Below are positions 9,932 through 64,000 of a stretch of DNA of 64,000 nucleotides, one piece after another. The DNA lies in the UHGV virus genome UHGV-0084588, one strand, 5' to 3'. Source of the DNA: a virus. Under the pieces are notes generated by a model. That model was not told the DNA's origin. It was given only the letters and a program-made list of their open reading frames with translations, and made no database searches. The stretch's first letter is position 1; each line of letters opens with the position of its first letter. The translations under genes and the position numbers were made by a program.

Positions 9932-9942
9932 TCGCCCCCACA

Positions 9943-9975: not shown

Positions 9976-10019
9976 CCCCAATTTATTATAGCCGCCCACT
10001 ATAGTGAGGGAATGAGGAA

Positions 10020-10319: not shown

Positions 10320-10332
10320 AAAAAGAAAAGCT

Positions 10333-10357
10333 ACTCCGACCCCAGAAGGGTCGGAGT
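10333..10357. terminator. bidirectional terminator between convergent genes
   Basis: ACTCCGACCC-caga-aGGGTCGGAGT flanked by an A-run upstream and ttatttttttttt downstream; lies between 10020-10319 (+) and 10384-13101 (-). Confidence 0.65.
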
Positions 10358-10383
10358 AAGCTCGAATTATTTTTTTTTGCTAT

Positions 10384-13101
10384 TTAGAGGGTTTCATCGG
10401 CGTTGTCGTCTGTACCGGTATCCGTCTCGTCTGTGCCTTCAGCAGAAACGTCTTCTTCCGTTGTCGTATCGGTTTCCGTCGTTTCATCATCAGACATGTC
10501 CAAGTCTTCATCACCGCCCATATCGTCACCTCCTAAGTCCTCATCGCCCCCTAAGCCGCCGTCGTCTTCAGACCCGCCACTGTAGTCACTACCGCCACCG
10601 AAGTTATTGGCGTCCTCAGGATTCAAATCAGCCGCTTTTGCCAAGGTTTCAACTTTACCTGTTGCACGCTTTGCTAACTGAATCAACGTTTTAGATGCTG
10701 ATGCGATTTCATCAGAAATCATCTTGACGTTTTCGCCACGTTTATCTTCGTCGTAGATCAAATCAAACAGATCGGTTTCGATGCCCTGATTGCGTAGCCA
10801 GTTACGCGTATAGAACGATTTAATCATCGTCTTGAGATCATCAGGCTGCATTTCGATACCTTCATTCTGAAGCATATTTGAAATGTCGTCGGTAACAACC
10901 AGATCCGCCAGTTTCTCAATGAACTCATAGCGTTTATCGAACAGATCCGCTTGTGAAGAAGAAGCTGATGTGTCTGGTGGTGGTAAGGTGACTTTCATGC
11001 CATTGATGAACTTCGCCAGATACTCTGACGTTTGCTTGGTCAAGTCTTCACTTGTTACGTTAGGATTTTGATTGCGAATATACTCAACGATAATACGAAT
11101 CAATTCTGCTTGTAACTTAGGAGAGGCTTGCAAACTGTTTGTCACGTAGCGTGTTAACGGCGTAGACAGGATTTCTTGTTTCTTCACGATTTGCTGAGTA
11201 ACCAGCAGTGACTTGGAATAAATCTGCGAAGCAAATTCCAGGTTTTCTGGGGTCAAAACAAGATCCGGGTCTACACACGCGATGTGGCAAGTACGGCGGA
11301 GTAAGTTTTCATCGATTTGCTGATCGGGCACTTTATACTCAGGCGTTGTGTCCGAAACGGACACTTTATGACTGGCGTAGTATTCGTTACCCGTCACGTT
11401 AAATGCAATCCCGGCATTAGCCCCCATTGACCAGGCATCGTTGATATCGCCCCACATCGGTAAACGACGATTATAGGAGTTGAGGATATCCGATTTAACT
11501 TGGTCAACTGTTTTCTGACCGTTCATATCGTCCGGCGATAACTCAATGTCATATTGCATGTGACGCGCTGAGTTCAACACTGAAGAGTTCATTGTTGCGA
11601 ACAACAGCGCCATCCTGACCGTAGAGATGATAAAGGAACGTTCGGTGATAGACACCCCGATACCATCTTCGTTAAAGTCCGTTGCAAAGTAGCATAAGTT
11701 ATTAACCGGGATATAGACAACCTGTGTGTGACGTTTTGCGAGATGACGTGCCAGTAGAATACGACCGAAGGTTTCGGTAATTTTCATGCTGATTTCGGCA
11801 CCACCCAACGCCTGACTTAAAGCGCGGGTAAATTCGTTCTCAGCAATCTCGCTGCAACGTGCGCTTAAACGGTTGGCGATTTCAGGCGTTATACGAGAGG
11901 TATTACCCAAGCCTAAATTAGAGCGGTTGATAATACTGTCTGTCATGCCATCGTTATTAAGGTAGTTCATAAAGTTCGCGTCCCCGTAGAGTGAGGAACG
12001 TGAGTTGATGAAGTTACCCATATCGTCAATAATGGTCAGAAACCCAATAGGGTTACGAACGTCGTCACCAATAACCAACGGGGCGGTAGACTCAGCAGGG
12101 AGTAAGCATTCGAAATAGTCGATCTGGTTGTTTTCATCCATCGAAATAATCGGGATGTTACCATAAAGCTGAGTTTTTGGTGTACTTTTGTACGCTTCGT
12201 TCAGATCACCTAAGTTAATGAAACCTTTTTCAGCCGCATCACGCTGACGATCGTTAAACTGTTGATTAACTTCGTACGGCGCAGCACCTGTCGGTGTGGC
12301 TGGCTTTTCATATGCGGCTTGCTCTAATTGGCCGTAGAGACCAGTACGTGCGTTCTCATGCGCGATTCGACGATAAGCATGGGGCAGTAACGTGATACGT
12401 GGGTTGTCGGTAATCGAGATGTCCATTTCGAACTTATCTGAGAACATCTTATCATGGTTACTGAAATTGATTTTCAGTGATTGTGGTCCTTTAACAGGTC
12501 CACGGACACGGCTCAGAATAGATTCCACACCCACCCGTTGTCCGTCTTCTTGCGCGTTAATTGGGCCGAGAATACCGAGTTGTTCTTCGAAATAGGCGGC
12601 TTGAGAACGACGCATGGATTCGGTAGCGACTTTGGTGTCTAAACCGAATAGCTGGTCAAATCCATTGTCCGAGATTATCATCACTGGACTTGCGCCTTTT
12701 GTTTTTAACGCGTCGTAAATCCACTGATATAATTTCTTAGGTAATTGACGTACGTTATCATGGTAATCGCGCGTTGGCGTCAGTAAGTCATTACGTAAGT
12801 CAATTGGAATGTCTGCGATGTTGTCGTAAATCAACGTGGTGTTGATTAAGTCTTTTGTCGACAGCAAGCTCGAAGTTGCAATGGTAACAATCGTTTCGAG
12901 TTCAGGTAACGCATCAAAGATACGTTCCGCGCTTTTGATAGTACGAATACGCGAACTTACAATTCCTGCAAGTTCTTGACGTGTTGGCGTAGAACCACCC
13001 TCGCTACGCGTACCGCGTTGTTGCTGGGGTGCTGGGCCCGTAGTTTTACGAAGAATTGCAGCTACGGCGGGGTCGCCCGTTAATTTACTAATATCGTCCA
13101 T
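10384..13101 (-). CDS. large hypothetical protein with acidic Gly/Asp/Glu/Thr-rich C-terminal tail (905 aa), possibly virion-associated
   Basis: Long minus-strand ORF; last 90 aa are poly-acidic low complexity. A portal-like role is a guess from size only. Confidence 0.6.
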   Translation of the reverse strand: MDDISKLTGDPAVAAILRKTTGPAPQQQRGTRSEGGSTPTRQELAGIVSSRIRTIKSAERIFDALPELETIVTIATSSLLSTKDLINTTLIYDNIADIPIDLRNDLLTPTRDYHDNVRQLPKKLYQWIYDALKTKGASPVMIISDNGFDQLFGLDTKVATESMRRSQAAYFEEQLGILGPINAQEDGQRVGVESILSRVRGPVKGPQSLKINFSNHDKMFSDKFEMDISITDNPRITLLPHAYRRIAHENARTGLYGQLEQAAYEKPATPTGAAPYEVNQQFNDRQRDAAEKGFINLGDLNEAYKSTPKTQLYGNIPIISMDENNQIDYFECLLPAESTAPLVIGDDVRNPIGFLTIIDDMGNFINSRSSLYGDANFMNYLNNDGMTDSIINRSNLGLGNTSRITPEIANRLSARCSEIAENEFTRALSQALGGAEISMKITETFGRILLARHLAKRHTQVVYIPVNNLCYFATDFNEDGIGVSITERSFIISTVRMALLFATMNSSVLNSARHMQYDIELSPDDMNGQKTVDQVKSDILNSYNRRLPMWGDINDAWSMGANAGIAFNVTGNEYYASHKVSVSDTTPEYKVPDQQIDENLLRRTCHIACVDPDLVLTPENLEFASQIYSKSLLVTQQIVKKQEILSTPLTRYVTNSLQASPKLQAELIRIIVEYIRNQNPNVTSEDLTKQTSEYLAKFINGMKVTLPPPDTSASSSQADLFDKRYEFIEKLADLVVTDDISNMLQNEGIEMQPDDLKTMIKSFYTRNWLRNQGIETDLFDLIYDEDKRGENVKMISDEIASASKTLIQLAKRATGKVETLAKAADLNPEDANNFGGGSDYSGGSEDDGGLGGDEDLGGDDMGGDEDLDMSDDETTETDTTTEEDVSAEGTDETDTGTDDNADETL

Positions 13102-50505: not shown

Positions 50506-51354
50506 ATGTCTCTTACGTCAAAACAGAAACTGCTAAAACTCATCAACACTGAAAACAATATTGTTCCGCCATTGACCTTCAGTGATGTTGATATCGGCGA
50601 ACCTACTGGTACTGGGGTTGATACCCAGGTGGTTCTGACTTCTAAACTCAAAGGCGATGAGTCTACTACTTTAACGGTGACTTACCATCGTCGTAATTTG
50701 CCAGAATACCTAACAGGCGAGTTGGTATTCGGTAACGACGGTGTTGTAACTGCTGCAGATTTGCTTAATGCAATCAACGCAAAATACGATTTAAATATTC
50801 TGCCGTCAGATATCGTTGATGCGAAAGTTGAAGGTAAAACCCACCAACTTGCCGCTAACGAGAAATCCTACGAGTGGTGTGGCGAAGTGACACTTACGCT
50901 ACGCGATCCTATTGATCTGGCTAAACTGCTACCTGTTACTCAATTAGAAAACCTGGTAGAGTATCCGTCCACCAAGAAAGGTAACGCTGCGGTTTATTCT
51001 TATCCGATTGACTTCACCGCAGAAAAAGATTACCTTGATCCGATTACCATTAACGACACCGTAGACTTAGTAGAGTTAGCTACTAAACTGACTAACGTTG
51101 TTGACGAGAAATGGGTAAGCGTACCTAAGAACGCTGCTAATAACTTGTTCGGTGCTAAGGTTATCTACGATGGCCCTACCGCAGGTTTCGAAGGCGCAAA
51201 TGCGAAGTACACGCGTGTGCTGGTACTCGCCCTAAGCGGTATGTGTTCTAACCTGACCGGTAAACTGTTAATTCACTTTAACGGAACCGATCGTCCGAAG
51301 TCGAAGATTGAATTAGCCAAGACTAATTCGGTCTTACCGGGATTCTTAGATTAA
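50506..51354 (+). CDS. member of a six-copy paralogous protein family, possibly structural (282 aa)
   Basis: N-terminal pattern L..LIN..N......T..DV..GEP.....G..T.V.LT.........(Y/H).R shared with 51368, 54511, 55107, 35448 and 42163. Confidence 0.55.
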   Translation: MSLTSKQKLLKLINTENNIVPPLTFSDVDIGEPTGTGVDTQVVLTSKLKGDESTTLTVTYHRRNLPEYLTGELVFGNDGVVTAADLLNAINAKYDLNILPSDIVDAKVEGKTHQLAANEKSYEWCGEVTLTLRDPIDLAKLLPVTQLENLVEYPSTKKGNAAVYSYPIDFTAEKDYLDPITINDTVDLVELATKLTNVVDEKWVSVPKNAANNLFGAKVIYDGPTAGFEGANAKYTRVLVLALSGMCSNLTGKLLIHFNGTDRPKSKIELAKTNSVLPGFLD

Positions 51355-51367
51355 GAGGATTACAGTA

Positions 51368-51844
51368 ATGACCAGTCAAGAAACTATCTTCGACCTTATT
51401 AAAAAGGCTAACCCAGACGCCGAGCTCGACACCGCCAAAGTCACATTGGGTGAGCCCGTCGTAAGTACCGGTACGTACAACACCGAAATTACGGTTGCGC
51501 CGGTGAAGAATCTCGGTTATGTTAATAAGCAAACGTTCCAGTATAACCGCATTGATGCAGGTTTGTATTTCCTCAACGTATTGCCGAAACTGTTAGTTGA
51601 AACAGCCACCACGACTGCGGACTTGCTGCCTGTAATTAACGAGCAGTATGGCTTAACCCTTACCGAAGACGATGTGTGGGTAGAGCAGGTTGGTGCGTTA
51701 CCGCTAGACGGCAGTGCAATCGAGCACGGTATTTTCTTCCGCCCAGAGTGTCTAACCTGGGTCGGTGGTTTTACAGTGCGTGTTGCGCGTAAACCGTCTG
51801 TCGAGACACCGCCAGCTAAGCCATCGCGCGCTAAGAAGAAATAA
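51368..51844 (+). CDS. member of the same paralogous family (158 aa)
   Basis: Family pattern as above; terminator downstream. Confidence 0.55.
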   Translation: MTSQETIFDLIKKANPDAELDTAKVTLGEPVVSTGTYNTEITVAPVKNLGYVNKQTFQYNRIDAGLYFLNVLPKLLVETATTTADLLPVINEQYGLTLTEDDVWVEQVGALPLDGSAIEHGIFFRPECLTWVGGFTVRVARKPSVETPPAKPSRAKKK

Positions 51845-51906: not shown

Positions 51907-52497
51907 ATGGCCGAACGTTGGACTAAAGAAGGTATTATTGAATCAAAAACAGATTTAGAGGGTGGGTACGTGAACGACCCTGACGATAAAGGTGGGGAAA
52001 CCTGTCACGGGGTAACACTGACAACTGCACGCGAATACGGGTACAAAGGAAGAATGAAAGATCTGACCCGTGCGCAAGCGTTTGATATTTACGATCGTGG
52101 TTGGTGGAAGAAACTTAAACTCGATGAGATTTTCGCTATCTCGCCGATACTCGCAGACCGGATGTTTGATTTTGGTATTAACTCTGGCCGTGTTAACTGT
52201 GTGAAATCATTACAACGTATTCTCAACGTTTTAAATAACGAAGGGAAACTTTACGCAGATATTGACACCGACGGTGGCATGGGCCCTAAAACGCTAGGTG
52301 CCCTGAATGCTTATCTGAATTACCGTAAAGGCGAGGGATTAGGCATCTTAATCTTTGCGTTAATCTCACACCAGGTAACCTACTACACGGAAATCTCCGA
52401 AAAGCGTAAGAAGAATGAAAAATTCGCTTACGGCTGGTACGGACGCGTGTACAGGGAAATGCCGGATTATGTAGTGAAGGCGGGGTTAGTAAAATGA
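51907..52497 (+). CDS. endolysin, glycoside hydrolase family 108 muramidase with peptidoglycan-binding C-terminal domain
   Basis: N-terminal EGGYVNDPDDKGGETCHGVT is the hallmark GH108 motif; the C-terminal half resembles the associated PG-binding domain. Confidence 0.8.
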   Translation: MAERWTKEGIIESKTDLEGGYVNDPDDKGGETCHGVTLTTAREYGYKGRMKDLTRAQAFDIYDRGWWKKLKLDEIFAISPILADRMFDFGINSGRVNCVKSLQRILNVLNNEGKLYADIDTDGGMGPKTLGALNAYLNYRKGEGLGILIFALISHQVTYYTEISEKRKKNEKFAYGWYGRVYREMPDYVVKAGLVK

Positions 52498-52613
52498 ATT
52501 GGTTTGCTAAACTCTTAGCACTATTGTGGAAAGCGTTAACGTCTGGACGGAAACGTAAAGACGAAAAGCGTGGGTACGAATTTTTCTGGTTTCTATAAGG
52601 GAAGGTGTGGGTA

Positions 52614-53279
52614 ATGGAGAAGCTTCAATATAAACGTTTAGACAATAAGTGGTTTGTATTAACGGAGGATTACCATTATCCGTTTACGTTACGCGAGATT
52701 TATCACGACCACGTACACTTAGACCGTGCGGTTTATTTAACGGGTGTATTGCCTGACACGCAACTGTGGTTAACAGCACCGAAAGGGTTCGTTACCGATT
52801 TAGCGTCAATTCCTGATCACCTCCAGGGAATTTTCCATCCTGACGGACCGTGGGCACCTGCGGCCTGTATTCACGACTTACTCTATCAAAAATGCAACAC
52901 AGAGCGTAGCTATCCCATGACACCGGGTGGTAACGTTTCGCGTTTTATCGATAAAGAGTTCTCTGACTTAACTTTCCTGCGTATTATGCAGTCGTTGGAA
53001 ATCTCGCCTTATATCTGCCAAACATTTTATAAGGCTGTTGTTGAATTCGGCTGGGATGCCTACGTAGATCCTAATGCAAAGCCATCCTACAACACTAACG
53101 CGTTTCGTACGTTAGATTACAATCGAAACTATTTATTCGTTCGCGAGTTTAAGGAACCTGCAATCCCTGACCACGAACGTATTGATATCACCACAGATTG
53201 TCCCGTTAATGTCAAATACCTGAACATCAAACGGGCATTTCTGTCTGGGAGGGAAGATGTTTCATCCAAATCCGAGTAA
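52614..53279 (+). CDS. DUF1353-like phage protein
   Basis: GFVTDLASIP...HD.LY resembles the DUF1353 signature as I recall it; ATG at 52614 preferred over the track start 52605. Confidence 0.4.
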   Translation: MEKLQYKRLDNKWFVLTEDYHYPFTLREIYHDHVHLDRAVYLTGVLPDTQLWLTAPKGFVTDLASIPDHLQGIFHPDGPWAPAACIHDLLYQKCNTERSYPMTPGGNVSRFIDKEFSDLTFLRIMQSLEISPYICQTFYKAVVEFGWDAYVDPNAKPSYNTNAFRTLDYNRNYLFVREFKEPAIPDHERIDITTDCPVNVKYLNIKRAFLSGREDVSSKSE

Positions 53280-53772
53280 CTTTAAACTCAGAGAGTTAGT
53301 ACCACAGTCCTATATTGCCAAATACGGTGATTCCGCAATTCGGTTTATGAATCCGTTGTTAATGATTTCCCTACAACAGATTCGTAACCGTTTCGGTAGA
53401 ATGGTGATTAACTCAACTGCCGCACAACAGCGCGGACTAAGAACCTTAGATTTCTTTATTAATCAAGAAAAGCCTAAGGGTGGTAGTTATAAACAACGTG
53501 CGTTGCAGCTTTACGCCGATTCAGGAAGTCAACACAAATTCGGTAACGCTATTGATGCAACGTTGTTGGATAGCACCGTAAAACAGGTTCACGACTATAT
53601 CGCTGCTAACCCTGACGAGTTTCCGTTCATTCACTTTATTGAATGTGATATCAGTTGGTTACACATCGACGTTCGTAACCAACCTAACATTACTTTCTGG
53701 TCACCAAACCGTGGCACTGTGAAGGTTGTTAAGCAAAAGCCAATCGATTGGAGCGCCTTAGTCGAGATTTAA
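53257..53772 (+). CDS. peptidase M15-like cell-wall hydrolase
   Basis: SQHKFGNAIDA fits the S.H..G.A.D zinc-binding motif and WLHID fits the second His motif of M15/VanY-type peptidases. Confidence 0.55.
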   Translation: MFHPNPSNFKLRELVPQSYIAKYGDSAIRFMNPLLMISLQQIRNRFGRMVINSTAAQQRGLRTLDFFINQEKPKGGSYKQRALQLYADSGSQHKFGNAIDATLLDSTVKQVHDYIAANPDEFPFIHFIECDISWLHIDVRNQPNITFWSPNRGTVKVVKQKPIDWSALVEI

Positions 53773-54510: not shown

Positions 54511-55041
54511 ATGGCTAAAACCTTCCAACAGCAACTTATTGACGCTGTTAATACCAAAAACAGTACCCTGGACCCCGCACTCACCGTAGCTGATGTTGAC
54601 TTTGGTGCTGTTGCTGAGTTCACCGGAGAAGCTGGCCGCAACACTAAAATTACCCTGACCGCCAAGGAAGAAAGCCAGCACTTCAAGGGCGAGAAAGAAT
54701 TCCACTATACTCGTCTTTCATGCGACATCGTTGGTGAAGTTGAAGTAACTGCACCTGCTACCGATTTCGATTCAGCAGCGAAAATCCTGGCGAAAGTTAA
54801 CGCAGCCATGGCTGAGAAAGGGTACACCGATGACGAGTTCGGTGAAAACGACCTGCAAAGTATTTCTCGTGAAGAAGAAGGCAAAACCATTTACGTAGTA
54901 ACTGTTGTGGCCGGACACCTGAAGTTCCTGCCAGGCACTGTTGCAACGTATAAAGTTACTCCTCCGGCTCCTGAGAAAGTAGCACTGGACGGTCTGGAAG
55001 GTGAACTGGATAGCTTCACTGCACCGCTTCCTAAAGAGTAA
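54511..55041 (+). CDS. member of the six-copy paralogous family, codon-biased (176 aa)
   Basis: Family pattern; host-like codon bias suggests high expression; a sigma70-like -10 element lies upstream. Confidence 0.6.
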   Translation: MAKTFQQQLIDAVNTKNSTLDPALTVADVDFGAVAEFTGEAGRNTKITLTAKEESQHFKGEKEFHYTRLSCDIVGEVEVTAPATDFDSAAKILAKVNAAMAEKGYTDDEFGENDLQSISREEEGKTIYVVTVVAGHLKFLPGTVATYKVTPPAPEKVALDGLEGELDSFTAPLPKE

Positions 55042-55106: not shown

Positions 55107-55637
55107 ATGGCCGCTACTAACCAGATGATGTTGGTCGCGCTTTATAATGCTGCTAACACTGAGCTACCACATCAGATTACTGATAAAGAAGTGTCCTTTG
55201 GTCTCCCTACTGCGCTGGAAGGCAAAAGTAAGAATACCAAAGTTACCATGACTGCACTACCGGGTTCTGAGAATTTCAAAGGCGCAATCGAGCTGCATTA
55301 CGATCGTCTGGAGCCGGGTGTTGTAGGACGTATTGAACTAACTGACGATTTGTCTCGTTGGGAAGATCAAAACGAATTGCGCGCATGGTTACAATATTAC
55401 ATCAACAAAGTAAAACCTGACGACGCTATCGCACCTGGTGACGTTGTGTACAGCACCGAAGACCAGAAAGACGAACATGATAACGTCACACTGCGTACGG
55501 TAACGTGCACCGTTACTGAAAAGAACCTCCGTTATAAACCGGGTGTAATGGCAACTTTCGTAATTACGCCGAAAGTTGTTGACAATCGTATTGACCTGGC
55601 CACTACCAACGGCGAGCTGGACGGCTTTACGTCCTAA
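55107..55637 (+). CDS. member of the six-copy paralogous family (176 aa)
   Basis: Family pattern; bidirectional terminator downstream. Confidence 0.6.
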   Translation: MAATNQMMLVALYNAANTELPHQITDKEVSFGLPTALEGKSKNTKVTMTALPGSENFKGAIELHYDRLEPGVVGRIELTDDLSRWEDQNELRAWLQYYINKVKPDDAIAPGDVVYSTEDQKDEHDNVTLRTVTCTVTEKNLRYKPGVMATFVITPKVVDNRIDLATTNGELDGFTS

Positions 55638-55638
55638 G

Positions 55639-55691
55639 AAAAATAAAAAAATACCTACCTCCCGTAATAGGAGGTAGGTATATCTTTTTTT
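55639..55691. terminator. bidirectional terminator between convergent blocks
   Basis: aaaaataaaaaaa-TACCTACCTCC-cgtaata-GGAGGTAGGTA-tatcttttttt; lies between 55107-55637 (+) and 55701-56372 (-). Confidence 0.65.
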
Positions 55692-56372: not shown

Positions 56373-56938
56373 TCTTCTTCTCCAACCATACCTAATTCTT
56401 GCAGCAAGCCAAAATCAATCAACTGGAAGGTTTCAGAGAGATCGTTTGACCACACCACGTTTGCAATGTCGCGTTCTTCATCGGATAATTGCGGTAACAC
56501 ATTTTCGTTGAACGTCTGATGCTCTACGTAATAAGCATCGTAGATAGACGTAGAACGCAAGCAACGGATTGGCAGTCTTGGGAAAGACACCGCTAATGCA
56601 GCAATAGATGCGCTGCTCGGATTCTCCGCAGAATAGCGAAGCAATTCGATTTTGTGGCGCGGATAGTCCAGTACGCGTTGCTCGAAACCCGGATTACGTT
56701 TTTCGATTTCAACAACGGACTCATGACCTGTTTCTGTACAGTAAACGGGAATCATCACGTTTAGCCCGTACTTAATTAACAGAGGTTTAATCTCATCTGT
56801 AAAGTCTTCGCCAGGGATAATGGCGTGAACGTTATAGAGTTTATGTTTGCGCAGAAAACGCTCAACCAGATGGAGTTTACGCTTCGTAAAATTGTGGATC
56901 AGAATTGATTTCATTATTTGCCTCAGTAGGTTGTGCAT
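56348..56938 (-). CDS. hypothetical protein in the radical SAM operon (188-196 aa)
   Basis: ORF overlapping the rSAM gene stop; an alternative ATG at 56914 has SD gagg. Confidence 0.5.
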   Translation of the reverse strand: MHNLLRQIMKSILIHNFTKRKLHLVERFLRKHKLYNVHAIIPGEDFTDEIKPLLIKYGLNVMIPVYCTETGHESVVEIEKRNPGFEQRVLDYPRHKIELLRYSAENPSSASIAALAVSFPRLPIRCLRSTSIYDAYYVEHQTFNENVLPQLSDEERDIANVVWSNDLSETFQLIDFGLLQELGMVGEEECLLLTKA

Positions 56939-58211
56939 TTAAAGCACGTTTAGCTTGCTCACGCTCACGCGTACATTTCGGACAGTAACAAACAGACGAA
57001 TCGTGCAGTGACGATGCGTGGACGGTACCCGTACGTTGACGCCAGTATTCTGCTGCCATCAGTTTTGCGGTCGTCCAGCCACATTGACGACGTTCAGCGT
57101 GGTACGCCTTACGGTCTTCCAGTGTCCCTTCACCGTTTTCGTAGGAAGCAGCTGCACAGCTGCCACAACCGTGTTTCATCGGACAGCCTAAGCACGTTTC
57201 AGGGTAGTTAGTATATTGCGTCTGAATCTCTTCCAGCAGCTTCCCGTCATCTAAACTAACGAACTCGCGACCAACTAATTCAAACACCGCAGAACGTGAC
57301 GTTACCGTTGACATAAAACGGTTACAACCGTATACCTTGCGGTCAAAACCTAAACAGGTCATGAACGTTAACGTACCACAGAACGGACGTAGGCGATCTG
57401 GGTTATAACGATGCGTGTCGTCATACAGCAGCTTATCGCGCCAATCTGGGTCCCAAATCTGACGGAAATCCAGACCTTCGGGAATGATATGTGACAACAC
57501 GTTACGTGGATTGGTGTGCAACCCTTTCTCAATCCAATAATCCATCACGTCGATCATCTGCAACGCAATATCCGTTGCCATGCTCCGTGGAAGAATATCT
57601 TCGTACGTAACGTTACCTGAAATCGTACCGCCACCGGCAACATCGATTAGCGATTTCATACTCGCTGCATAATGCGGTAACGTTTCGGTCGTAAAGGTTG
57701 CCTTGATACCCAGTTCAGCAATACCGACTTCTTTTAAGTAGTTATAGCCACGAACAGCGGCTTCGTAAGAACCTTGACGCGTCGTGGTAAAGATACGATA
57801 GCGGTCATGGACTTCTGGTAAACCGTCGATAGAAACACCGATGGAGAGTTTGTCTTTCCAACGCTCAACAATCTCACGGTTTAACGGGCGATCTAACAAC
57901 GTACCGTTAGTTGAGATACTGAACATATACGGGCGATTGTGCTCCTTACACAACTGTTCTGCGGTTTCGAACGCCGCTAACAGCAGTTTCGGTTGCATAA
58001 AAGGCTCACCGCCGATGATATCAATAATGACGTCGATGTTCGGAATATCTTTATCGCGCTCAAAACACGCGTGTAAGAAATCCACGATATCCGCCGCTTT
58101 GTTATTACGCGGATACTTACGTTCGTAACAATACTCACAGTCTAAGTTACAAGACAGATTCGTTACCACCTGGTAAGTACGTTGAGAACGTGGTGCTTCA
58201 TTATTGCTCAT
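56877..58211 (-). CDS. radical SAM enzyme with C-terminal SPASM-like Cys-rich domain (444 aa), candidate peptide maturase
   Basis: Canonical CNLDCEYC (CxxxCxxC) near the N-terminus; C-terminal clusters FCGTLTFMTCLG...GCNRF and CLGCPMKHGCGSCAAA fit the auxiliary Fe-S pattern of SPASM/twitch domains. Confidence 0.75.
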   Translation of the reverse strand: MSNNEAPRSQRTYQVVTNLSCNLDCEYCYERKYPRNNKAADIVDFLHACFERDKDIPNIDVIIDIIGGEPFMQPKLLLAAFETAEQLCKEHNRPYMFSISTNGTLLDRPLNREIVERWKDKLSIGVSIDGLPEVHDRYRIFTTTRQGSYEAAVRGYNYLKEVGIAELGIKATFTTETLPHYAASMKSLIDVAGGGTISGNVTYEDILPRSMATDIALQMIDVMDYWIEKGLHTNPRNVLSHIIPEGLDFRQIWDPDWRDKLLYDDTHRYNPDRLRPFCGTLTFMTCLGFDRKVYGCNRFMSTVTSRSAVFELVGREFVSLDDGKLLEEIQTQYTNYPETCLGCPMKHGCGSCAAASYENGEGTLEDRKAYHAERRQCGWTTAKLMAAEYWRQRTGTVHASSLHDSSVCYCPKCTREREQAKRALNAQPTEANNEINSDPQFYEA

Positions 58212-59118
58212 CTTTGCTTATCCTTTTACGCTCTGCATAAATCACGCGTTTAATGTACTCGTAAGCACCTACTCCAATAGAGCAAGCGAGCTGATTGCAG
58301 CCACCGTTTAAGATAGCTGGGGCATTCTGAAGCTGATGTTCTGTTCCATCTGCGTTCAAATACAACTCTTCGCTACAAACATTACACTCGTTTTCGAAAA
58401 TCTTGCTGACAGACACGCCGCACGATTCTCCAGTTTGGACGTTCAACCGTTCCATATTCTCCTGAATTTTTAAATAGCCATAAACGAAGTTCATGACGTG
58501 ATCAGGAGACAATGGTTTTGGCATCTGCGCATCAAACATTAGAGAAAACGCACGGGGACGATAGTGGTACATCGCACGATGCAAATCCACAATATCTTCA
58601 TACCAGCGCTTATCCGCTAACTGGTCACGCGTAATCACAGCCCAGGTTTGGAAATTATCGAGTTCGTATAACGCTTCCAATGCTTCGTGGCTATCCTCTT
58701 CAATAAAGCGCATAAAAGGGCGCTCAGAACGCTTGTAGCCATCAATTGATACAAACACATGCTCAAAGTCTTTTAGCAGCGTAAGATGCGATTTACGCAG
58801 TTTTAAGCCGTTGGTATACAAGTGATGCTCAAGGTGCGGATGAGACACTTTCAATTCGTTAACGAAATCCTCAATCTTACGTTGGACGAGTAGCGGCTCG
58901 CCACCGGTCCAATGTATTTCCTTAATAGCCGGATTCTCTTGTAGTAATTCCAGGATACGTTCGCGTTGAAAAGCACGAGACGAATCTTCACGATTCATGT
59001 AGTAGGCTCCACCGCAGAAACTACAATCTAGGTTACACTTAGACGTCGTAACTACGGACAATATAGTGGGTTTATCGTACAACTTCGTCGAGATCCTGGA
59101 TTCCACATTGTCTATCAT
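58201..59118 (-). CDS. radical SAM enzyme (305 aa)
   Basis: CNLDCSFCGG (CxxxCxxC) motif; GGEPLL glycine-rich SAM motif; C-terminal CNVCSE...GGCNQLACS Cys cluster; overlaps the downstream rSAM gene by 11 nt. Confidence 0.7.
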   Translation of the reverse strand: MIDNVESRISTKLYDKPTILSVVTTSKCNLDCSFCGGAYYMNREDSSRAFQRERILELLQENPAIKEIHWTGGEPLLVQRKIEDFVNELKVSHPHLEHHLYTNGLKLRKSHLTLLKDFEHVFVSIDGYKRSERPFMRFIEEDSHEALEALYELDNFQTWAVITRDQLADKRWYEDIVDLHRAMYHYRPRAFSLMFDAQMPKPLSPDHVMNFVYGYLKIQENMERLNVQTGESCGVSVSKIFENECNVCSEELYLNADGTEHQLQNAPAILNGGCNQLACSIGVGAYEYIKRVIYAERKRISKDEQ

Positions 59119-59138: not shown

Positions 59139-60026
59139 TTAAATATAATCGATGGCGAATAAAGGATCTTCGTCGAAGTTAACACCTGGTTTTAAAATCA
59201 GTGGTGAATTATACGCTTCCAGTAAACGGTTAAGTTCGTTGTAGCGGCTATTCATCCGTTTGAGGTCTTCTAAGGTTACAACACGGTCCAGCATCGGTTT
59301 AACCGCTGCGGCTTCCTCGTCAGTCAATTTAACTTTCGACAACAGGAAACTGACGAGTTTAGAAATGTCCGCTTCGGTGGCTGGACTCTGACCGAAACGT
59401 ACCTGAACCATGTGCTGCATCCACGGTTTACGAATGCGTTTCGTAATCACGTGTTCGTCAGTAATGGCTTTCCAAACCGAACGCTCACGAATCCATTCAA
59501 ACTTATAGCTGTACGCCATTAAGTCAGCCAGATGCGTAATTCCGAGTTCTTGATAACCTTCAATATCGATATACGGTTCCGTATCAAAATACTCTTTGGT
59601 ATCCTTTTCAACCAAAGCGTAGTAGTTAGGGAACGCACCCAGGTAGTCTGGGCTCCACCAACGACGGGCCATCGGTTTAGCATCGAGTTCTTCAAACGGC
59701 GTGAACATAAGTTCTAAGTCAACTGTATTATTTAACACACCGTCGCTAAAGAAATATTTGCCGTCGATAAGTTTACCGCGTTGTGAGTTATCACCGGTAA
59801 AGACAACAATGCTTTCGCCAACCATATCACGAATTTTAAACGTGTTCTCAACCGTAAAGTTGTCACGATTAGCGATATGACGGCCGCGCACTTTCGGCCA
59901 TTCCCCAGGAATCATGGCAATTAAACGTACGTCGTCGGCAAGATGGTGACGTACCGAATCAGGGGAAGAGATGTGAAGTGGATGATTGAACGTTGTCGTA
60001 TATGCAAGATGTAGATCGTTCTTCAT
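59139..60026 (-). CDS. hypothetical protein between the peptide genes and the rSAM genes (295 aa)
   Basis: ORF in operon; function unassigned (could be a leader-recognition or processing protein). Confidence 0.55.
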   Translation of the reverse strand: MKNDLHLAYTTTFNHPLHISSPDSVRHHLADDVRLIAMIPGEWPKVRGRHIANRDNFTVENTFKIRDMVGESIVVFTGDNSQRGKLIDGKYFFSDGVLNNTVDLELMFTPFEELDAKPMARRWWSPDYLGAFPNYYALVEKDTKEYFDTEPYIDIEGYQELGITHLADLMAYSYKFEWIRERSVWKAITDEHVITKRIRKPWMQHMVQVRFGQSPATEADISKLVSFLLSKVKLTDEEAAAVKPMLDRVVTLEDLKRMNSRYNELNRLLEAYNSPLILKPGVNFDEDPLFAIDYI

Positions 60027-60094: not shown

Positions 60095-60301
60095 TTACCT
60101 TCCCCCCGCACCTTTACTACAGCTACCACTGCACGCCCAGCTACAACTGCCGTTACAGTTATAGTGGGTTAATGGTAATCCTGCCAAGTTATTCGTCGTG
60201 GACACCGTACCTTGGTTAGCGATGTAGTTATTCGCGTCTGAGGTTTTGATGTAGCCTTCAACCTGACCGATTCTGTCTCGAATATTTTTGAGGGAAATCA
60301 C
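60095..60301 (-). CDS. Cys-rich peptide, short paralog (68 aa), candidate RiPP-type precursor
   Basis: GTG start with SD ggaggt; hydrophilic leader then core CNGSCSWACSGSCSKGAGGR. Confidence 0.55.
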   Translation of the reverse strand: MISLKNIRDRIGQVEGYIKTSDANNYIANQGTVSTTNNLAGLPLTHYNCNGSCSWACSGSCSKGAGGR

Positions 60302-60311
60302 TTCTCACCTC

Positions 60312-60707
60312 CTATCGTCCTGTACACGCTGAGCAACCGCCAGTACAGCTACTGGAACACGATGCTGTGCACCCGCCAGAACAAGTGCCTGAGCACAGGT
60401 TAGCACACCCACCTGAACAACTCCCCGAGCACCCTGAACACGAAGTGGAACACCCTGACGTACAGTTTGCAGAACATGAGGAACCACAACCGCCGGACGC
60501 GTTCCCAGTACACCCACCAGAACAACTCGAACAGGTAAACGAACACGTACCCGCACAGTCGTAATGCGCACGATTCTGACCGCCGAACAGGTCTGCGTTA
60601 TTCGTACCTTTATTGCGGATATAGTTCTGTACACCCGTGGTATTTTTCAGTGCGATACTATCGACGTTATTAAGACGTCTTACTAATTCAGATAAACCGA
60701 CTGCCAT
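60312..60707 (-). CDS. Cys-rich CXXX-repeat peptide (131 aa), candidate RiPP-type precursor
   Basis: ATG with SD gggggaag; about 50-aa leader then an 80-aa core with roughly 22 Cys at mostly 4-residue spacing in a Gly/Ser/Thr matrix. Confidence 0.6.
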   Translation of the reverse strand: MAVGLSELVRRLNNVDSIALKNTTGVQNYIRNKGTNNADLFGGQNRAHYDCAGTCSFTCSSCSGGCTGNASGGCGSSCSANCTSGCSTSCSGCSGSCSGGCANLCSGTCSGGCTASCSSSCTGGCSACTGR

Positions 60708-60716
60708 TTCTTCCCC

Positions 60717-61109
60717 CTATCGTCCAGAGCATCCGCCGGAGCAAGCACCCGAACAGTTATGCGAACAACGTCCAGTACAACTTCCGGTACAGGTACTTGT
60801 ACAACTGCTAGAACAACCGCCAGAACAGCCAGAGCATCCTGAACAGTTACCCCCACAGGACGAAGAACAGCTACCCACACAAGCGGCTGAACAGTTACCT
60901 GAACAGCTAGAGCAACCGTGACTACATCCGTTAGAACATGTCCACGAACACGTTCCTCCGCAGTCTAAACGTGAAGGTGTCCAACCAGAAAACGAATCTG
61001 CCGCGTTATGCGCTTTCGATGCGACCTGCGCATCGACACGAGGGCCGGTAGCGACTGTATTTTCTACTACGGTTAACCGATCGCGCATTTGTTTAACACT
61101 AATCGCCAT
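60717..61109 (-). CDS. Cys-rich CXXX-repeat peptide (130 aa), candidate RiPP-type precursor
   Basis: ATG with SD aggaag; leader then core CGGTCSWTCSNGCSHGCSSCSGNCSAAC... with roughly 21 Cys, ending GR. Confidence 0.6.
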   Translation of the reverse strand: MAISVKQMRDRLTVVENTVATGPRVDAQVASKAHNAADSFSGWTPSRLDCGGTCSWTCSNGCSHGCSSCSGNCSAACVGSCSSSCGGNCSGCSGCSGGCSSSCTSTCTGSCTGRCSHNCSGACSGGCSGR

Positions 61110-61174: not shown

Positions 61175-62374
61175 TTATCTCGTACCTGCTTCTGCCTGAA
61201 CGTCATCACGGGACGTCAAGTTAGCGTTAACGTGCACTGAAGCCTGAACCACACCGCCGTATTTCTTGTGCAGGTAACCTGTGTGTGGGTTATCCGCCGC
61301 AATATGGTTTTGTAGGTTCTGATTCGCCTGACTGATTGCGTTCGTGTTATTCGCAACCTGTTGTTTAAGCGCATCCAAGTTTTGTTGCAGATTATCAATT
61401 TTCTGATCGGTCTCATTACCCCGCTGTTCTAACGCAGCAATGCGCTGAATCGCTTGGTTGAGCTTGGTGTTCAGATCGTTGATATTTTTCTGTAACTGTA
61501 ACACTAACGAGTTTAGGTTCGCCAGTGCCAGTGCCATTTTCTGGTAGTTTTGTGCAACGACGTTAAGTTGGTCGTTCCACGCTTCCAGAGATTTGACAAC
61601 AGCATCAATACGTTTTCCTAACGCTTCGTCCGCTTTCTTCAATGCGTTGATTTCAGTAATCGTTGCATCAATGGCAGACTGCACGTCGCGGATAAGCGCA
61701 CGGATTTCCGTTTCCGTTAACCCGTTAACCTGATGAATATCCAGATGGTGGACATTACCAGTGGAGTTAATGTGCGCGTTCAGCGCGTCCAGGAAATCGT
61801 TTTTCAGGCTATCGAGAATCGCTTTGATGTTCTCAAGCTGTACAGCATCGCCCGCAGTTATCGCATCTTTAATACCGGCGAGCACTGTAATGATGTATTC
61901 GAAGCCGTAGATATCGCCGACGTCTTTATACGTTGGTGCCGAAGGAAACGTGTCCGGCACATTTCGCAAGTCTTTAAAGCCAACAGTTCGATTATCGAGA
62001 TTCAACTCGGCAATCGCTTGCTCAATCGCGGTCACAACTGCAGACTGTGGACCACCAACTACTTGCGCCGATACCGTGATATCGGTCGGAATCGCGGTGT
62101 TCGTTACAACAACCGCCATTACTACTTCCCGGTTCTTCGTCAATTTCTCGTAAGCCGGGTGTGCAAAAATCAGCTCATAGTCCGTTCCACGCTCATACGT
62201 CGCTCCAGGTCGATTGGCAACCCGCAAGCGGAACGTATCGGCATAAAACGGGCCATCAGGGAAAGCAAACGCACGGTTAACTTTACCTGTACCTAACGTA
62301 ATCTGACGCTCCACGGCGTTAGAGGTTAGGGTTCCCGTTAAATCTAAAGGGTATTGGTATACAATGGAGGCCAT
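61175..62374 (-). CDS. fibre-like protein with long coiled-coil segment (about 400 aa)
   Basis: Track ORF 61175-62482 trimmed to the ATG at 62374 (SD aaggagag); central Q/N/L/A-rich heptad region typical of fibrous phage proteins. Confidence 0.55.
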   Translation of the reverse strand: MASIVYQYPLDLTGTLTSNAVERQITLGTGKVNRAFAFPDGPFYADTFRLRVANRPGATYERGTDYELIFAHPAYEKLTKNREVVMAVVVTNTAIPTDITVSAQVVGGPQSAVVTAIEQAIAELNLDNRTVGFKDLRNVPDTFPSAPTYKDVGDIYGFEYIITVLAGIKDAITAGDAVQLENIKAILDSLKNDFLDALNAHINSTGNVHHLDIHQVNGLTETEIRALIRDVQSAIDATITEINALKKADEALGKRIDAVVKSLEAWNDQLNVVAQNYQKMALALANLNSLVLQLQKNINDLNTKLNQAIQRIAALEQRGNETDQKIDNLQQNLDALKQQVANNTNAISQANQNLQNHIAADNPHTGYLHKKYGGVVQASVHVNANLTSRDDVQAEAGTR

Positions 62375-62414: not shown

Positions 62415-64000
62415 TTAAGATGTAAACATAAGATTGAACTGGAGCTTATCGATATCGCGAGTTTGTGCTGGGTTAACCGCATCGTACGTGGTTGCCACGT
62501 AGACCGTTAACGTGCCGTCAGAAAACGCGGTTTTCACCGGTGGTGTAGTCCCTGTCTGTCCATCAGTTACAATGACGACAGGTTGAGCCGGGAGTTGACG
62601 AAACTGACTCTTAACCGCTTTATACACCAAACCAGATTGTGCCGCTTGCTCTGTGGCGGTGTACACGATAAACGGTGTGTCGATATCTGTCTGTTTAATG
62701 ACAGTGTTCGTCTCAACGTCAATCAGCTGAACAGCACCAAATTTGGTCCGGTAACTATCGTATTCATTTTTTGGAATGACAAACGTAGCATGAAGGCGGA
62801 CTTCGGCGGCTGGCTTAAATCCCGCGTGTTCTTTTTCCAGGTAACTGTTAGCAGTTAGCGTTACTGTCTGTTCAGTCATCGTACCGCCAGACTGATTTAG
62901 CCCGTAACGAACTTGAGTTATACCTGTCGGGGCCGCAAGCCTGATTTTCAGTCGACGATTAGTAGTACCAGGATCGCCAGGTACTTTAACACGCAGACTC
63001 AATGCCAGATATGCATACTCGCCGGTAGTCGGTTTCGTATACGCACCCAACCACTTCATGTTCGCGGTTGCTGCTTGTTTGTTCTCAGAAGCAGTAGCCG
63101 CTGCAACGTTCGCAGCAACCGCTTTCTGCCAGAACTGGTCAGCGCAGTTCTCATACGCCACCCTGCTGATACTTTTATAACCTGAATAGGTTTCCTGTAC
63201 CGGCAACCTGGGCCGCGTTGCAATCCCGGACAACGTATTCCATTTCTGGCCATCGACATACCCAGCACCCTTGCTCGCAGATGCTGTAATGGCTTTAACG
63301 GGTTTATTAACCACTGTTAATAGTGGACCAGTTTTCCTGTCGAACGCCTGCGCCACATCGTGCTGATCAACAACCGAGGCATGATTTTCCAGCTCTTTTA
63401 CACGACCTAACCGTTTTACTTTATCGATACTGATATCCGTAATACGGTTCGAATCAGTGGTTACTGTCCCAACAAACAGTCTCGACGAGGTATCAGCTAA
63501 CTGCTCTAAACCGATGCGGTATTGGGCAGTAGAACCGACCACTTCAGCATAAACGTAGAATGTCTGGTTAGCGTGATTAGTCGGGAATTCATCGCTTAAA
63601 TCAACGGACCATCTTGGAACGGTATATCTTTTATTTCCAAAACTTAACTCGGTTTCCTCCGTCAGATAGAAATTCCAACCGCTCTGTGTTTGTACGCCGC
63701 CAATAATAATCTTATCGATAACAGTATATTTTTTGTTAAACAAATCAGAGATTCTATACTGTTCGCCACCGAGATACAACTCGTTTAAATCTTCCGAGTT
63801 ACAAGTCAATAGCGCGATGCCCGAGAGATCGGGTATATAGACTTCAGATGTATTATTCAGCGTATACGTATAGCCCCACGCCCGATGAATTTCGCCGGTA
63901 AACCATTCTCCTTTTTTAGTCAAGTTTATCCCAAAAGCAAAAGAAATCTCTGATCCTACAAGATTCCCGCCAACCAGGTTATGTATTGAGAATCTGAACT
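62415..64000 (-). CDS. large structural-type protein, 5' end outside the window (partial)
   Basis: Reading frame stays open from 62415 to the window edge; the TTG at 63923 given by the track is probably not the true start. Confidence 0.5.
   Translation of the reverse strand, partial: FRFSIHNLVGGNLVGSEISFAFGINLTKKGEWFTGEIHRAWGYTYTLNNTSEVYIPDLSGIALLTCNSEDLNELYLGGEQYRISDLFNKKYTVIDKIIIGGVQTQSGWNFYLTEETELSFGNKRYTVPRWSVDLSDEFPTNHANQTFYVYAEVVGSTAQYRIGLEQLADTSSRLFVGTVTTDSNRITDISIDKVKRLGRVKELENHASVVDQHDVAQAFDRKTGPLLTVVNKPVKAITASASKGAGYVDGQKWNTLSGIATRPRLPVQETYSGYKSISRVAYENCADQFWQKAVAANVAAATASENKQAATANMKWLGAYTKPTTGEYAYLALSLRVKVPGDPGTTNRRLKIRLAAPTGITQVRYGLNQSGGTMTEQTVTLTANSYLEKEHAGFKPAAEVRLHATFVIPKNEYDSYRTKFGAVQLIDVETNTVIKQTDIDTPFIVYTATEQAAQSGLVYKAVKSQFRQLPAQPVVIVTDGQTGTTPPVKTAFSDGTLTVYVATTYDAVNPAQTRDIDKLQFNLMFTS

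Follow-up and report, generated by a model that had tools for sequence, protein, structure and literature searches.

Overlapping radical SAM genes of an SPN3US-like jumbo phage point to a probable tail-fibre maturation module

Introduction

What do two overlapping radical SAM (rSAM) genes modify in a jumbo phage? The question is raised by a locus in the virus genome UHGV-0084588, of which a stretch of 64,000 nucleotides was analysed (the window). The genome is that of an SPN3US-like jumbo phage. Literature searches returned no paper on a link between tail fibres and radical SAM enzymes, nor one on the CXXX-repeat system. The reading that we favour, by a modest lean, is that the two enzymes are a maturase pair in a conserved phage tail-fibre module and would form thioether cross-links in it.

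Results

Two radical SAM enzymes of different kinds

The genes for the 305-aa and 444-aa proteins (Table 1) share 11 nt, as a preliminary description of this DNA had stated; locus L087 and Erwinia phage pEa_SNUABM_29 have the identical overlap. About 13 nt ahead of the downstream ATG, that of the 444-aa gene, stands an AAGGA, a position that would be compatible with coupled translation of this gene. In relatives the two genes stay adjacent, though their junction varies, with extremes of a 17-nt overlap and a 10-nt gap; a Campylobacter prophage has them in inverted order. At several related loci the SPASM enzyme occurs without a short rSAM partner, indicating a core role in maturation for the SPASM enzyme and an accessory role for the short one.

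Both proteins carry CxxxCxxC near the N-terminus, in agreement with the same description (C21/C25/C28, residues 21–28, in the 444-aa protein; C28/C32/C35, residues 28–35, in the 305-aa protein), and a SAM-binding GGEP motif (67–70 and 72–75, respectively). In the rSAM domain search that it had proposed, both passed Pfam PF04055 (53.3 bits, E = 5e-14, and 55.8 bits, E = 8.5e-15; cutoff 29.5), so that the radical SAM assignment is far beyond chance. The two enzymes are homologous over the core alone (hhalign, 23% identity, columns 7–191). Judged from sequence, they are radical SAM proteins of different kinds.

Eleven more cysteines follow in the 444-aa protein from residue 278 on. Nine of these fall within the last 150 residues, where at least seven had been noted, and eight are conserved in the family alignment (C278, C286, C296, C340, C343, C349, C352 and C377); a CxCxxC at 408–413 is confined to the jumbo-phage clade. 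The seven-cysteine SPASM motif CX9-15GX4C ... CX2CX5CX3C ... C, fit for two auxiliary clusters, was used as the reference. From this the region deviates in two spacings: the middle run is C340-x2-C343-x5-C349-x2-C352, ending in x2 rather than x3, and the Gly stands immediately before C296. The NCBIfam SPASM model TIGR04085 was matched over positions 1–86 of 93 (E = 1.5e-5) with 25.4 bits, 1.6 below its cutoff of 27, and Pfam SPASM PF13186 gave zero matches at E ≤ 10 with full-length proteins and isolated C-termini. The 444-aa family profile aligned to CteB residues 104–429 (E = 3e-36) and to anSME residues 14–327 (E = 5e-18), in both cases through the SPASM region, and these end-to-end alignments indicate a partial TIM-barrel fold. 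Because TIGR04085 came so near its cutoff and the alignment covered the SPASM domains of both CteB and anSME, the missing PF13186 match was not counted as a refutation. We infer that a SPASM-type auxiliary-cluster domain with predicted cluster binding is present in the 444-aa protein, as first suggested.

The best NCBIfam match of this protein was TIGR04115 (E = 6e-36, 124.7 bits, cutoff 350), followed by the PapB family NF047865 (E = 4e-32, 111.7 bits, cutoff 340). Its closest solved relative is the thioether-forming CteB, with anSME second. Weak matches included the cyclophane-forming maturases YhhB and GrrM/OscB, and sulfatase_rSAM was also matched.

The 305-aa protein has five C-terminal cysteines (233, 245, 248, 274 and 279), of which three (C245, C248 and C274) are conserved in family alignments and C233 and C279 are variable. 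In an AF2 model (pLDDT 88.7), strands 251–254 and 260–262 are followed by helices 275–304, and the conserved cysteines would surround this predicted hairpin and helix. The top Foldseek matches of the model were CteB, SuiB, anSME and TigE; viperin and MoaA were also matched, through the partial TIM-barrel fold, and the epimerase EpeE was among the fold matches. The C-terminus matched no profile in Pfam and NCBIfam searches. The twitch rSAM model NF033640 scored 40.8 bits against a cutoff of 170, with the alignment restricted to the core, and the protein's weak matches include MoaA, QueE, viperin and NrdG. The twitch-like character ascribed to this enzyme is matched by three conserved cysteines and a modelled hairpin and helix, and by no profile; we regard the C-terminus as possibly twitch-like, a weaker call than the SPASM domain. 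The annotation of the SPN3US orthologue gp164 omits its catalytic motif.

Cysteine-repeat proteins and other operon neighbours

Three paralogous repeat genes lie 1–2 kb upstream of the rSAM pair in the same operon. The 130-aa product has 21 cysteines, with 17 of the 20 spacings equal to four, an N-terminal helix and a fibre-like 'NAAD..sGW' motif; its TIGR04114 match is below the cutoff. The 131-aa product has 20 cysteines with the consensus C-[ST]-G-x. The 68-aa paralogue retains the N-terminal domain with just four cysteines, and is also kept in SPN3US and pEa_SNUABM_29. The first 45–50 residues of the repeat proteins are conserved and non-repetitive, ending near 'DCGG', and carry a tail-fibre-type 'NADxFGG' that also stands ahead of the repeats in the fibres of relatives. 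Residue counts gave zero Asp or Glu in the window's repeat regions, which are rich in Cys and Ser and almost without aromatic residues. They also contain nearly no Lys or Arg, and the proteins would therefore be invisible to tryptic proteomics. These small proteins are putative virion parts.

In SPN3US (locus L001) the counterparts of the repeat genes lie on the minus strand at 10045–10437, 9630–10034 and 9408–9614 and are unannotated or mis-framed. In dozens of GenBank records of jumbo phages, too, these presumed substrate genes are missing or called in a wrong frame. Together with the incomplete gp164 annotation, this would explain why a link between enzyme and fibre went unnoticed.

Table 1. 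Features of the window around the radical SAM gene pair. Strand is given as (-) or, for both strands, as a point.
Feature	Position	Strand	Basis and remarks
Bidirectional terminator-like hairpin	55651..55681	.	12–13 bp stem, T-runs on both strands; closes the (-) operon
DUF4376 protein, 223 aa	55701..56372	(-)	PF14301 3.9e-10; SPN3US gp161 orthologue; last operon gene
Protein of up to 196 aa	56348..56938	(-)	phrog_7988 1.2e-77; SPN3US gp162 orthologue; same operon
Long radical SAM/SPASM enzyme, 444 aa	56877..58211	(-)	SPN3US gp163 orthologue
11-nt overlap, 305-aa stop and 444-aa start	58201..58211	(-)	ORF coordinates
Short radical SAM enzyme, 305 aa	58201..59118	(-)	SPN3US gp164 orthologue
Accessory protein, 295 aa	59139..60026	(-)	phrog_8030; SPN3US gp165 orthologue; conserved third module component
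Cys-repeat paralogue, truncated, 68 aa	60095..60301	(-)	phrog_6085 1.2e-25; paralogue alignment
Cys-repeat protein, 131 aa, presumed substrate	60312..60707	(-)	phrog_6085 8.6e-43; weak TIGR04118 and TIGR04114 matches
Cys-repeat protein, 130 aa, presumed substrate	60717..61109	(-)	phrog_6085 2.7e-37; TIGR04114 repeat 0.013
Coiled-coil virion protein	61175..62374	(-)	phrog_2163 5.4e-104; SPN3US gp167 alignment
Large baseplate/tail-fibre candidate, C-terminal part	62415..64000	(-)	phrog_7449 1.5e-84; SPN3US gp168 orthologue

Upstream of the repeat genes lie orthologues of structural proteins: SPN3US gp167–170 are virion proteins by mass spectrometry (PMC5694885 supplement), and gp168 has been termed a baseplate/tail-fibre candidate (PMC5694885). 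Proteins gp162–166 are missing from the SPN3US virion tables (PMC5694885). The likely start of the gp167 orthologue is MASIVYQYPLD, although the mechanical ORF reaches 62482. The gp168 orthologue matches positions 1220–1708 of 1714 in phrog_7449, and its frame is open to base 64000, where the window cuts it.

The phrog_8030 protein is a possible chaperone or substrate-presenting factor. Synteny of the gp162 orthologue is common to SPN3US and pEa_SNUABM_29, and membership of this phrog_7988 protein in the module is uncertain. A DUF4376 gene also lies 3' of the rSAM pair at locus L110. As a part of the fibre module the DUF4376 gene was downgraded, since SPN3US gp161 belongs to paralog family B and is grouped among head proteins (PMC5694885); its product is probably outside the module.

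A promoter scan of the window gave fewer matches than the shuffled expectation and is uninformative for this phage; no tRNAs were found within the window. Searches of the nine to ten operon proteins against Pfam, NCBIfam and PHROG found no protease or transporter families. Both enzymes lack an N-terminal RRE: 20–27 residues precede CxxxCxxC, and CteB is aligned from residue 104 onward, past its own RRE. Judged by RRE, protease and/or exporter, the locus is not a classical RiPP cluster.

Enzyme and repeat occur together in very different phages

Related loci were collected by two scans. A contig scan with the whole-protein alignment picked up generic motifs and returned mostly unrelated rSAM/SPASM genes, from which L007, L009, L010, L013, L014 and L051 were kept. 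A second scan of viral contigs with the C-terminal alignment was successful. An ORF with CxxxC repeats was found within about 3 kb of the family member at 28 of 28 related loci inspected, which were drawn from 18 jumbo phages, L004, L005, L105–L110, the TIGR04115 members L007 and L009, and L013 (TIGR04115 score 206 bits, below the cutoff). Among 50,697 cultured-phage records, the enzyme was present in 63 and the repeat protein in 60, in identical genera. Carriers include jumbo myoviruses, P2-like and other myovirus-type prophages, GpJ-type siphovirus prophages and T7-fibre-type phages, and their hosts belong to at least five bacterial phyla.

In the small phages and prophages, proteins that profiles identify as tail fibres (PF12571 at 1.8e-40 for L005; PHROG tail-fibre families for L107 and L108) end in the repeat. 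The C-termini of these three fibres match phrog_6085, as do the repeat proteins of the window, and fusion of the repeat domain to real tail-fibre C-termini was seen in at least five unrelated phages or prophages. The one peptide family named in the preliminary description is, instead of a precursor set of the classical RiPP kind, three tail-fibre-type proteins, whose repeat domain forms the C-terminus of true fibres elsewhere.

Clade relatives of the 444-aa enzyme score 127–155 bits on TIGR04115 (125–155 for the clade as a whole), as against 372–489 bits for L007, L009, L010, L014 and L051. L007 (371.6 bits) and L009 (448.7 bits) are likewise bona fide members and lie in prophage tail regions, each beside a Cys-repeat protein, of 243 aa in the first and 156 aa in the second. 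At L014 and L051, the bona fide TIGR04115 enzyme adjoins CxxxC peptides of 53–66 aa.

Discussion

A proposed maturation module for tail fibres

The proposed module has three regular components and a frequent fourth. The first would be a domain of about 10–30 C-[ST]-G-x repeats, which in the window stands on three small fibre-type proteins and in other phages at the C-terminus of the tail fibre itself. With it would come an accessory protein of 250–300 aa (phrog_8030), a radical SAM/SPASM enzyme (the 444-aa protein of the window) and, frequently, a shorter rSAM enzyme with a three-cysteine, twitch-like C-terminus (the 305-aa protein). Inside the infected cell, SAM would be cleaved by the SPASM enzyme and a repeat residue would lose a hydrogen from one of its carbons; this carbon would then be bonded to the sulfur of a neighbouring cysteine while the auxiliary clusters hold the thiolate and accept an electron. 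Iterated along the repeats, this cross-linking would give a thioether ladder, and the fibre would carry at its distal end a rod or knob that is covalently stapled and very stable. The short enzyme may introduce a second type of modification or be dedicated to particular substrates. As neither enzyme has an RRE of its own, the accessory protein may present or fold the substrate. The enzymes, of a type hitherto known from peptide-antibiotic pathways, would themselves stay outside the virion.

There is precedent for such chemistry in both proteins and peptides: the rSAM/SPASM enzyme QhpD forms several Cys thioether cross-links within a protein subunit, and PapB does so in a peptide (PMC10114670). 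The thioether assignment is read solely from the nearest relatives, PapB and CteB. Counting against it, the repeats are without Asp and Glu, the acceptors in PapB and QhpD. The scores far under the TIGR04115 and PapB cutoffs and the unmatched PF13186 also weigh against our reading, as does the absence of the short enzyme from several related loci. For the wider claim, that an rSAM-cross-linked cysteine ladder is present in distal tail fibres across very different phage architectures, we put the chances at about even.

A different chemistry on the same Cys/Ser repeat targets, which would keep the link to fibres, has perhaps one chance in several. The products could be formylglycine, C–C cross-links, epimerised residues or Cys-derived heterocycles. 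This reading draws on anSME as the second-best solved relative, on the sulfatase_rSAM match and on repeats rich in Cys and Ser, the residues that anSME oxidises; the weak matches to YhhB and GrrM/OscB and the likeness of the short enzyme's fold to EpeE also speak for it. Yet the nearest curated and solved relatives, PapB and CteB, form thioethers, the anSME target motif C/S-x-P/A-x-R does not occur in the repeats, and the aromatic residues needed for cyclophane links are almost missing from them.

It is unlikely that the locus encodes a classical phage RiPP, in which leader-bearing Cys-rich precursors would be modified, cleaved and released, with a bacteriocin-like, signalling or anti-defence function and no role in the virion. 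The conserved N-terminal residues of the repeat proteins do resemble a leader, the closest enzyme families carry the names of RiPP maturases, and the short peptides beside the enzymes of L014 and L051 would suit such a system. That 'leader', however, contains the fibre-type 'NADxFGG' found in the same position in true fibres, to whose C-termini the repeat domain is fused in unrelated phages. The missing RRE, protease and exporter, and the virion fibre genes that flank the repeat genes, also argue against release.

Least probable, by a small margin of our judgement, is that the repeats are a metal- or Fe-S-binding fibre element and that the rSAM enzymes, linked to it by position only, act on a nucleotide, cofactor or host molecule: regular cysteine spacing would allow metal chelation, metal-binding repeats are known from trimeric fibre tips (T4 gp37 with its HxH iron sites), and the short enzyme weakly matches MoaA, QueE, viperin and NrdG, but the enzyme and the repeat are strictly found together in widely differing phage types and phyla, all relatives of the long enzyme are maturases of peptides or proteins, and the curated TIGR04115 family is defined by such Cys-repeat targets.

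If such a ladder is built into tail fibres, it would be, to our knowledge, the first case of a structural protein of the virion modified post-translationally by radical SAM chemistry, and radical-SAM/SPASM cross-linking would reach beyond small secreted peptides to proteins of the virion. The curated 'CXXX-repeat RiPP' family would then be in part a tail-fibre maturation system, which would give the uncharacterised TIGR04114 and TIGR04115 a biological role. Tail fibres set host range and must withstand harsh environments; enzymatic stapling of a Cys-rich tip would be a way of stabilising fibres or binding receptors that is new in principle. It would also open a new route to engineering phages for therapy, and SPN3US-type phages of Salmonella and Erwinia are biocontrol candidates. 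The idea is directly testable in SPN3US, for which amber-mutant genetics and a virion proteome exist.

Comparison with known systems

The nearest parallel is the CXXX-repeat system, which comprises the TIGR04115 rSAM maturase, the Cys-rich repeat targets TIGR04114 and TIGR04118, and the CXXX repeat peptide maturase domain TIGR04119. The likeness lies in a SPASM rSAM enzyme adjoining a target with a cysteine at every fourth residue. By its score and those of its clade, the window enzyme belongs to a divergent sister clade of TIGR04115 and is not a member. It lacks the TIGR04119 domain but is accompanied by a second rSAM enzyme and the phrog_8030 protein. The curated description of TIGR04115 is that of a peptide (RiPP) maturase. 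We know of no experimental characterisation of the TIGR04115 family.

The ranthipeptide maturases PapB (freyrasin) and CteB (SCIFF/thermocellin) are likewise rSAM/SPASM enzymes that form multiple Cys thioethers in Cys-rich repeats. The window enzyme differs in scoring under the family cutoffs and in lacking the N-terminal RRE of CteB, and its repeats lack the acceptor Asp of PapB's Cys-x3-Asp type of substrate. PapB and CteB act on short peptides, the window enzyme presumably on fibre proteins of at least 130 aa.

With anSME, in which eight cysteines ligate two auxiliary clusters, the window enzyme would share the character of a leader-independent rSAM/SPASM enzyme acting on a full-length protein. 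anSME, in contrast, makes formylglycine from one Cys or Ser of a sulfatase motif, and the window repeats lack this motif.

HxsB/HxsC resembles the locus in its arrangement, with a SPASM rSAM enzyme and a shorter non-SPASM one beside a short-period repeat target. HxsB matches the long enzyme (5.9e-21, 74.8 bits against 370) and HxsC the short one (1.3e-12, 47.2 against 267.9). The Hxs target is His-Xaa-Ser and that of the window Cys-based, and no counterpart of HxsD was found.

The QhpD model TIGR03906 matches the 444-aa protein at 3.7e-15. QhpD is a distant relative that matures the gamma-subunit of quinohemoprotein amine dehydrogenase, uses Asp and Glu of QhpC as acceptors and has no phage or fibre context. 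Its likeness to the proposed module lies in the type of target: an rSAM/SPASM enzyme forms multiple Cys thioethers within a protein, and that protein is a small subunit with a structural role, not a peptide for secretion (PMC10114670).

Gene organisation

As the preliminary description had it, two overlapping radical SAM ORFs with CxxxCxxC motifs are present, and this was correct: the 11 nt overlap lies at 58201-58211, and both proteins score well above the Pfam Radical_SAM threshold of 29.5 bits (55.8 for the short and 53.3 for the long enzyme). A further 11 Cys lie between residue 278 and the C-terminus of the long enzyme, and five at the C-terminus of the short enzyme. The minus-strand operon runs gp168-like, gp167-like, three Cys-rich, gp165-like, the two radical SAM genes, gp162-like and DUF4376. 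The gp168-like gene, a baseplate/tail-fibre candidate, is incomplete at the window end, and the gp167-like gene encodes a coiled-coil virion protein.

Features of the window around the radical SAM gene pair
Feature	Coordinates	Strand	Details
Plus-strand protein 1	50506-51354	plus	similar N-terminus
Plus-strand protein 2	51368-51844	plus	similar N-terminus
Endolysin-like, DUF1353-type and third gene	51907-53772	plus	196, 224 and 171 aa
Plus-strand protein 3	54511-55041	plus	similar N-terminus
Plus-strand protein 4	55107-55637	plus	similar N-terminus
Strong bidirectional terminator	55651-55681		closes minus-strand operon
Long radical SAM gene	56877-58211	minus	444 aa; CxxxCxxC C21/C25/C28 + GGEP
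Short radical SAM gene	58201-59118	minus	305 aa; CxxxCxxC C28/C32/C35 + GGEP
gp165-like gene	59139-60026	minus	295 aa; phrog_8030
Cys-repeat paralogue	60095-60301	minus	68 aa; phrog_6085
Cys-repeat protein	60312-60707	minus	131 aa; phrog_6085
Cys-repeat protein	60717-61109	minus	130 aa; phrog_6085

The region has about 74% DNA identity and the same gene order as Salmonella phage SPN3US and its Erwinia, Escherichia and Proteus relatives (Seoulvirus). The long protein also has a copy at 99% identity on contigs, the largest of 226 kb, that carry the label Salmonella enterica. Radical SAM annotation already exists in SPN3US-type phages, where gp164 and gp163, orthologues of the short and long genes, are 'putative radical SAM superfamily protein 2 and 1'. 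The SPASM/twitch-like nature of the enzymes, the unannotated presumed Cys-repeat substrates and the tail-fibre association across phages appear to be undescribed. The SPN3US genetic system allows direct testing.

In SPN3US the annotated gp164 (264 aa) begins at an internal Met and so lacks the CxxxCxxC; the full ORF (SPN3US NC_027402, L001 7562-8476) is 304 aa and aligns from residue 1 with the short enzyme of the window. The four plus-strand proteins of the table, with N-terminus '...LI..xN..N....P.lT..dV.fG.P...', look like a paralogous family around lysis and assembly genes, and the SPN3US counterpart of one, gp160, is an abundant virion protein. The DUF1353-type gene is annotated 'tail assembly chaperone' in SPN3US.

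Cys-repeat proteins

The three Cys-repeat genes, upstream of the radical SAM genes, are paralogues. Their N-terminal 50 or so residues are conserved in all three and include a helix 'ISLKxxRxRL' and the motif 'NNADxFGG...YDCGGTCSW'; in the two long proteins some 20 C-[ST]-G-[GST] repeats follow. These 130 and 131 aa proteins have their own ribosome-binding sites and contain 21 and 20 Cys, with a spacing of exactly 4 in 17/20 and 15/19 cases; over 78 residues there is no Asp or Glu and at most one Lys/Arg. SPN3US keeps all three ORFs (L001 9408-10437, equivalent to window 60095-61109), but its annotation misses them: gp166 (111 aa) is a wrong-frame call over a 134 aa Cys-repeat ORF, with no annotation for the remaining two. 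The position is also without any feature in many further jumbo-phage records of GenBank.

Association with tail fibres

In unrelated prophages, distant homologues of the long enzyme, at 31-39% identity, are encoded directly 3′ of tail-fibre genes. The fibre of a P2-like Campylobacter pinnipediorum prophage (PF12571, 1.8e-40) terminates in '...GCNGCSGSCSGSCSSGCTACSGCSGSCSG...' and is followed by a 250 aa protein, the long and short radical SAM genes and DUF1353 (L005 8068-8433, immediately after the pair). In a GpJ-type Deferribacter prophage, a 302 aa fibre with 29 Cys, 28 of them in a closely spaced C-terminal run, precedes a 250 aa protein homologous to the gp165-like protein (E 4e-12; phrog_8030), then the short and long radical SAM genes. 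Further loci comprised 22 from a viral-contig scan and two from additional look-ups (L109, L110), and at each of them a CxxxC-repeat ORF lies no more than about 3 kb away. At L105, L107 and L108 fibre-like proteins of 267-568 aa end in the repeat; at L109 a 76 aa CxxxC-repeat ORF missed by the gene caller (4021-4251) begins at the stop codon of a T7-type tail fibre, and its product could be a subunit of its own or arise as a fusion through recoding. phrog_6085 is matched by both the fibre C-termini and the small proteins of the window. Of 50,697 cultured-phage records, 63 contain the enzyme and 60 the repeat protein, and the genera are the same.

The genomic association of the enzyme with fibre Cys repeats is strict, which counts against the least likely alternative, a metal-binding repeat with no relation to the enzymes. 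In SPN3US, gp167-170 are virion proteins and gp162-166 are not in the virion tables (PMC5694885); the enzymes are non-virion, which fits enzymes and assembly factors working on structural proteins. Members of the gp165-like family are rare, forming 43 clusters at 50% identity in a set of 1.84 billion representatives, and about half of these clusters share the C-terminal helical part only.

One of the look-up loci, a 170 kb phage contig with the radical SAM pair, a Cys-repeat gene and a DUF4376 gene (L110 1234-3502), also carries two S-adenosylmethionine lyase genes a few kb upstream, which is odd since the phage's own enzymes need SAM. Campylobacter phages CP220 and CPt10 are reported to have 11-12 radical SAM genes each, regarded as unexplained by the authors (PMC2853527).

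Domains of the two enzymes

The reading of the pair as SPASM- and twitch-like was partly borne out. For the long enzyme the SPASM domain stands. Eight C-terminal Cys are conserved in an alignment of 23 homologues with identity down to 27%: C296, C340, C343, C349, C352 and C377 are invariant, and C278 and C286 occur in at least 90% of sequences. Their pattern, C-x7-C-x9-C ... C-x2-C-x5-C-x2-C ... C, corresponds to the SPASM motif. Pfam SPASM gave no match, and NCBIfam SPASM (TIGR04085) reached 25.4 bits, just under its cutoff of 27, over model positions 1-86 of 93. The long-enzyme family profile aligns to CteB residues 104-429 (E 3e-36) and anSME residues 14-327 (E 5e-18), SPASM regions included. 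Jumbo-phage members keep an extra C-terminal CxCxxC (C408, C410, C413), possibly a further metal site, which is not shared by the prophage homologues.

A twitch-like C-terminus in the short enzyme is reasonable but unproven, and no profile matched this C-terminus. C245, C248 and C274 are invariant in jumbo phages, where alone a word-based search found homologues; C248 and C274 stay invariant as far as the short radical SAM proteins of distant prophages, and C233 and C279 are not conserved. In the AF2 model (pLDDT 88.7) these Cys are surrounded by a hairpin (251-254, 260-262) and helices (275-304), and its top structural matches are CteB, SuiB, anSME and TigE, then viperin and MoaA. Homology between the two enzymes is confined to the core (hhalign, 23% identity, 164 columns).

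L007, L009, L013, L107 and L109 lack the short enzyme, whereas the close relatives L090 and L093 have it in duplicate. This third radical SAM gene (L090 3768-4679, L093 3769-4680; 303 aa, 52% identity to the short enzyme of the window) sits between the two Cys-repeat genes, which suggests that short enzymes are paired with particular substrates.

Relation to curated families

Among curated families the long enzyme matched TIGR04115, 'radical SAM peptide maturase, CXXX-repeat target family', best, at 124.7 bits for a cutoff of 350, followed by PapB at 111.7 bits for a cutoff of 340. Because TIGR04115 scores across its clade are 125-155 bits, the long enzyme belongs to a divergent sister clade outside the family. 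Bona fide TIGR04115 enzymes from genomes are of two kinds. In two Bacillota MAGs (L014 7851-10067, L051 7941-10121) the enzyme has a C-terminal fusion to TIGR04119, 'CXXX repeat peptide maturase', and adjoins tandem 53-66 aa CxxxC peptides; this looks like a classical RiPP cluster, unlike the phage-tail layout, and the unlikely alternative of a secreted RiPP as the product of the phage enzymes would find its parallel here. The second kind lies in prophage tail regions next to Cys-repeat proteins of 156-243 aa, among baseplate wedge and tail genes (L007) or between tail-fibre genes and an endolysin (L009), so the curated family is itself partly a phage-tail system. We found no paper placing the family in phage tails, nor experimental characterisation, in the limited literature searched, which is no proof of novelty.

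Proposed mechanism and comparison with known systems

The nearest characterised relatives, PapB and CteB, with QhpD more distant, all form a bond between a Cys sulfur and a carbon atom in a different residue, and QhpD makes several such links within one protein subunit (PMC10114670). From these activities we infer that several thioether cross-links would be made along the Cys repeat, giving a covalently stapled element at the distal fibre. A different chemistry on the same repeat target is the likeliest of the rivals, though an improbable one: it shares the fibre association and departs from the chemistry of these relatives. For thioether stapling, the short enzyme would be an accessory modifier.

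CteB has an N-terminal RRE, whereas the phage long enzyme has none, because the CteB alignment begins past the RRE and only 20 residues precede the cluster motif. The gp165-like protein might therefore be a chaperone or substrate presenter. In anSME the ligation pattern is that of two fully ligated clusters, and the predicted ligands of the long enzyme would likewise suffice for two. The pairing of a SPASM radical SAM enzyme with a shorter one resembles HxsB/HxsC, to which the matches are weak and whose target is different.
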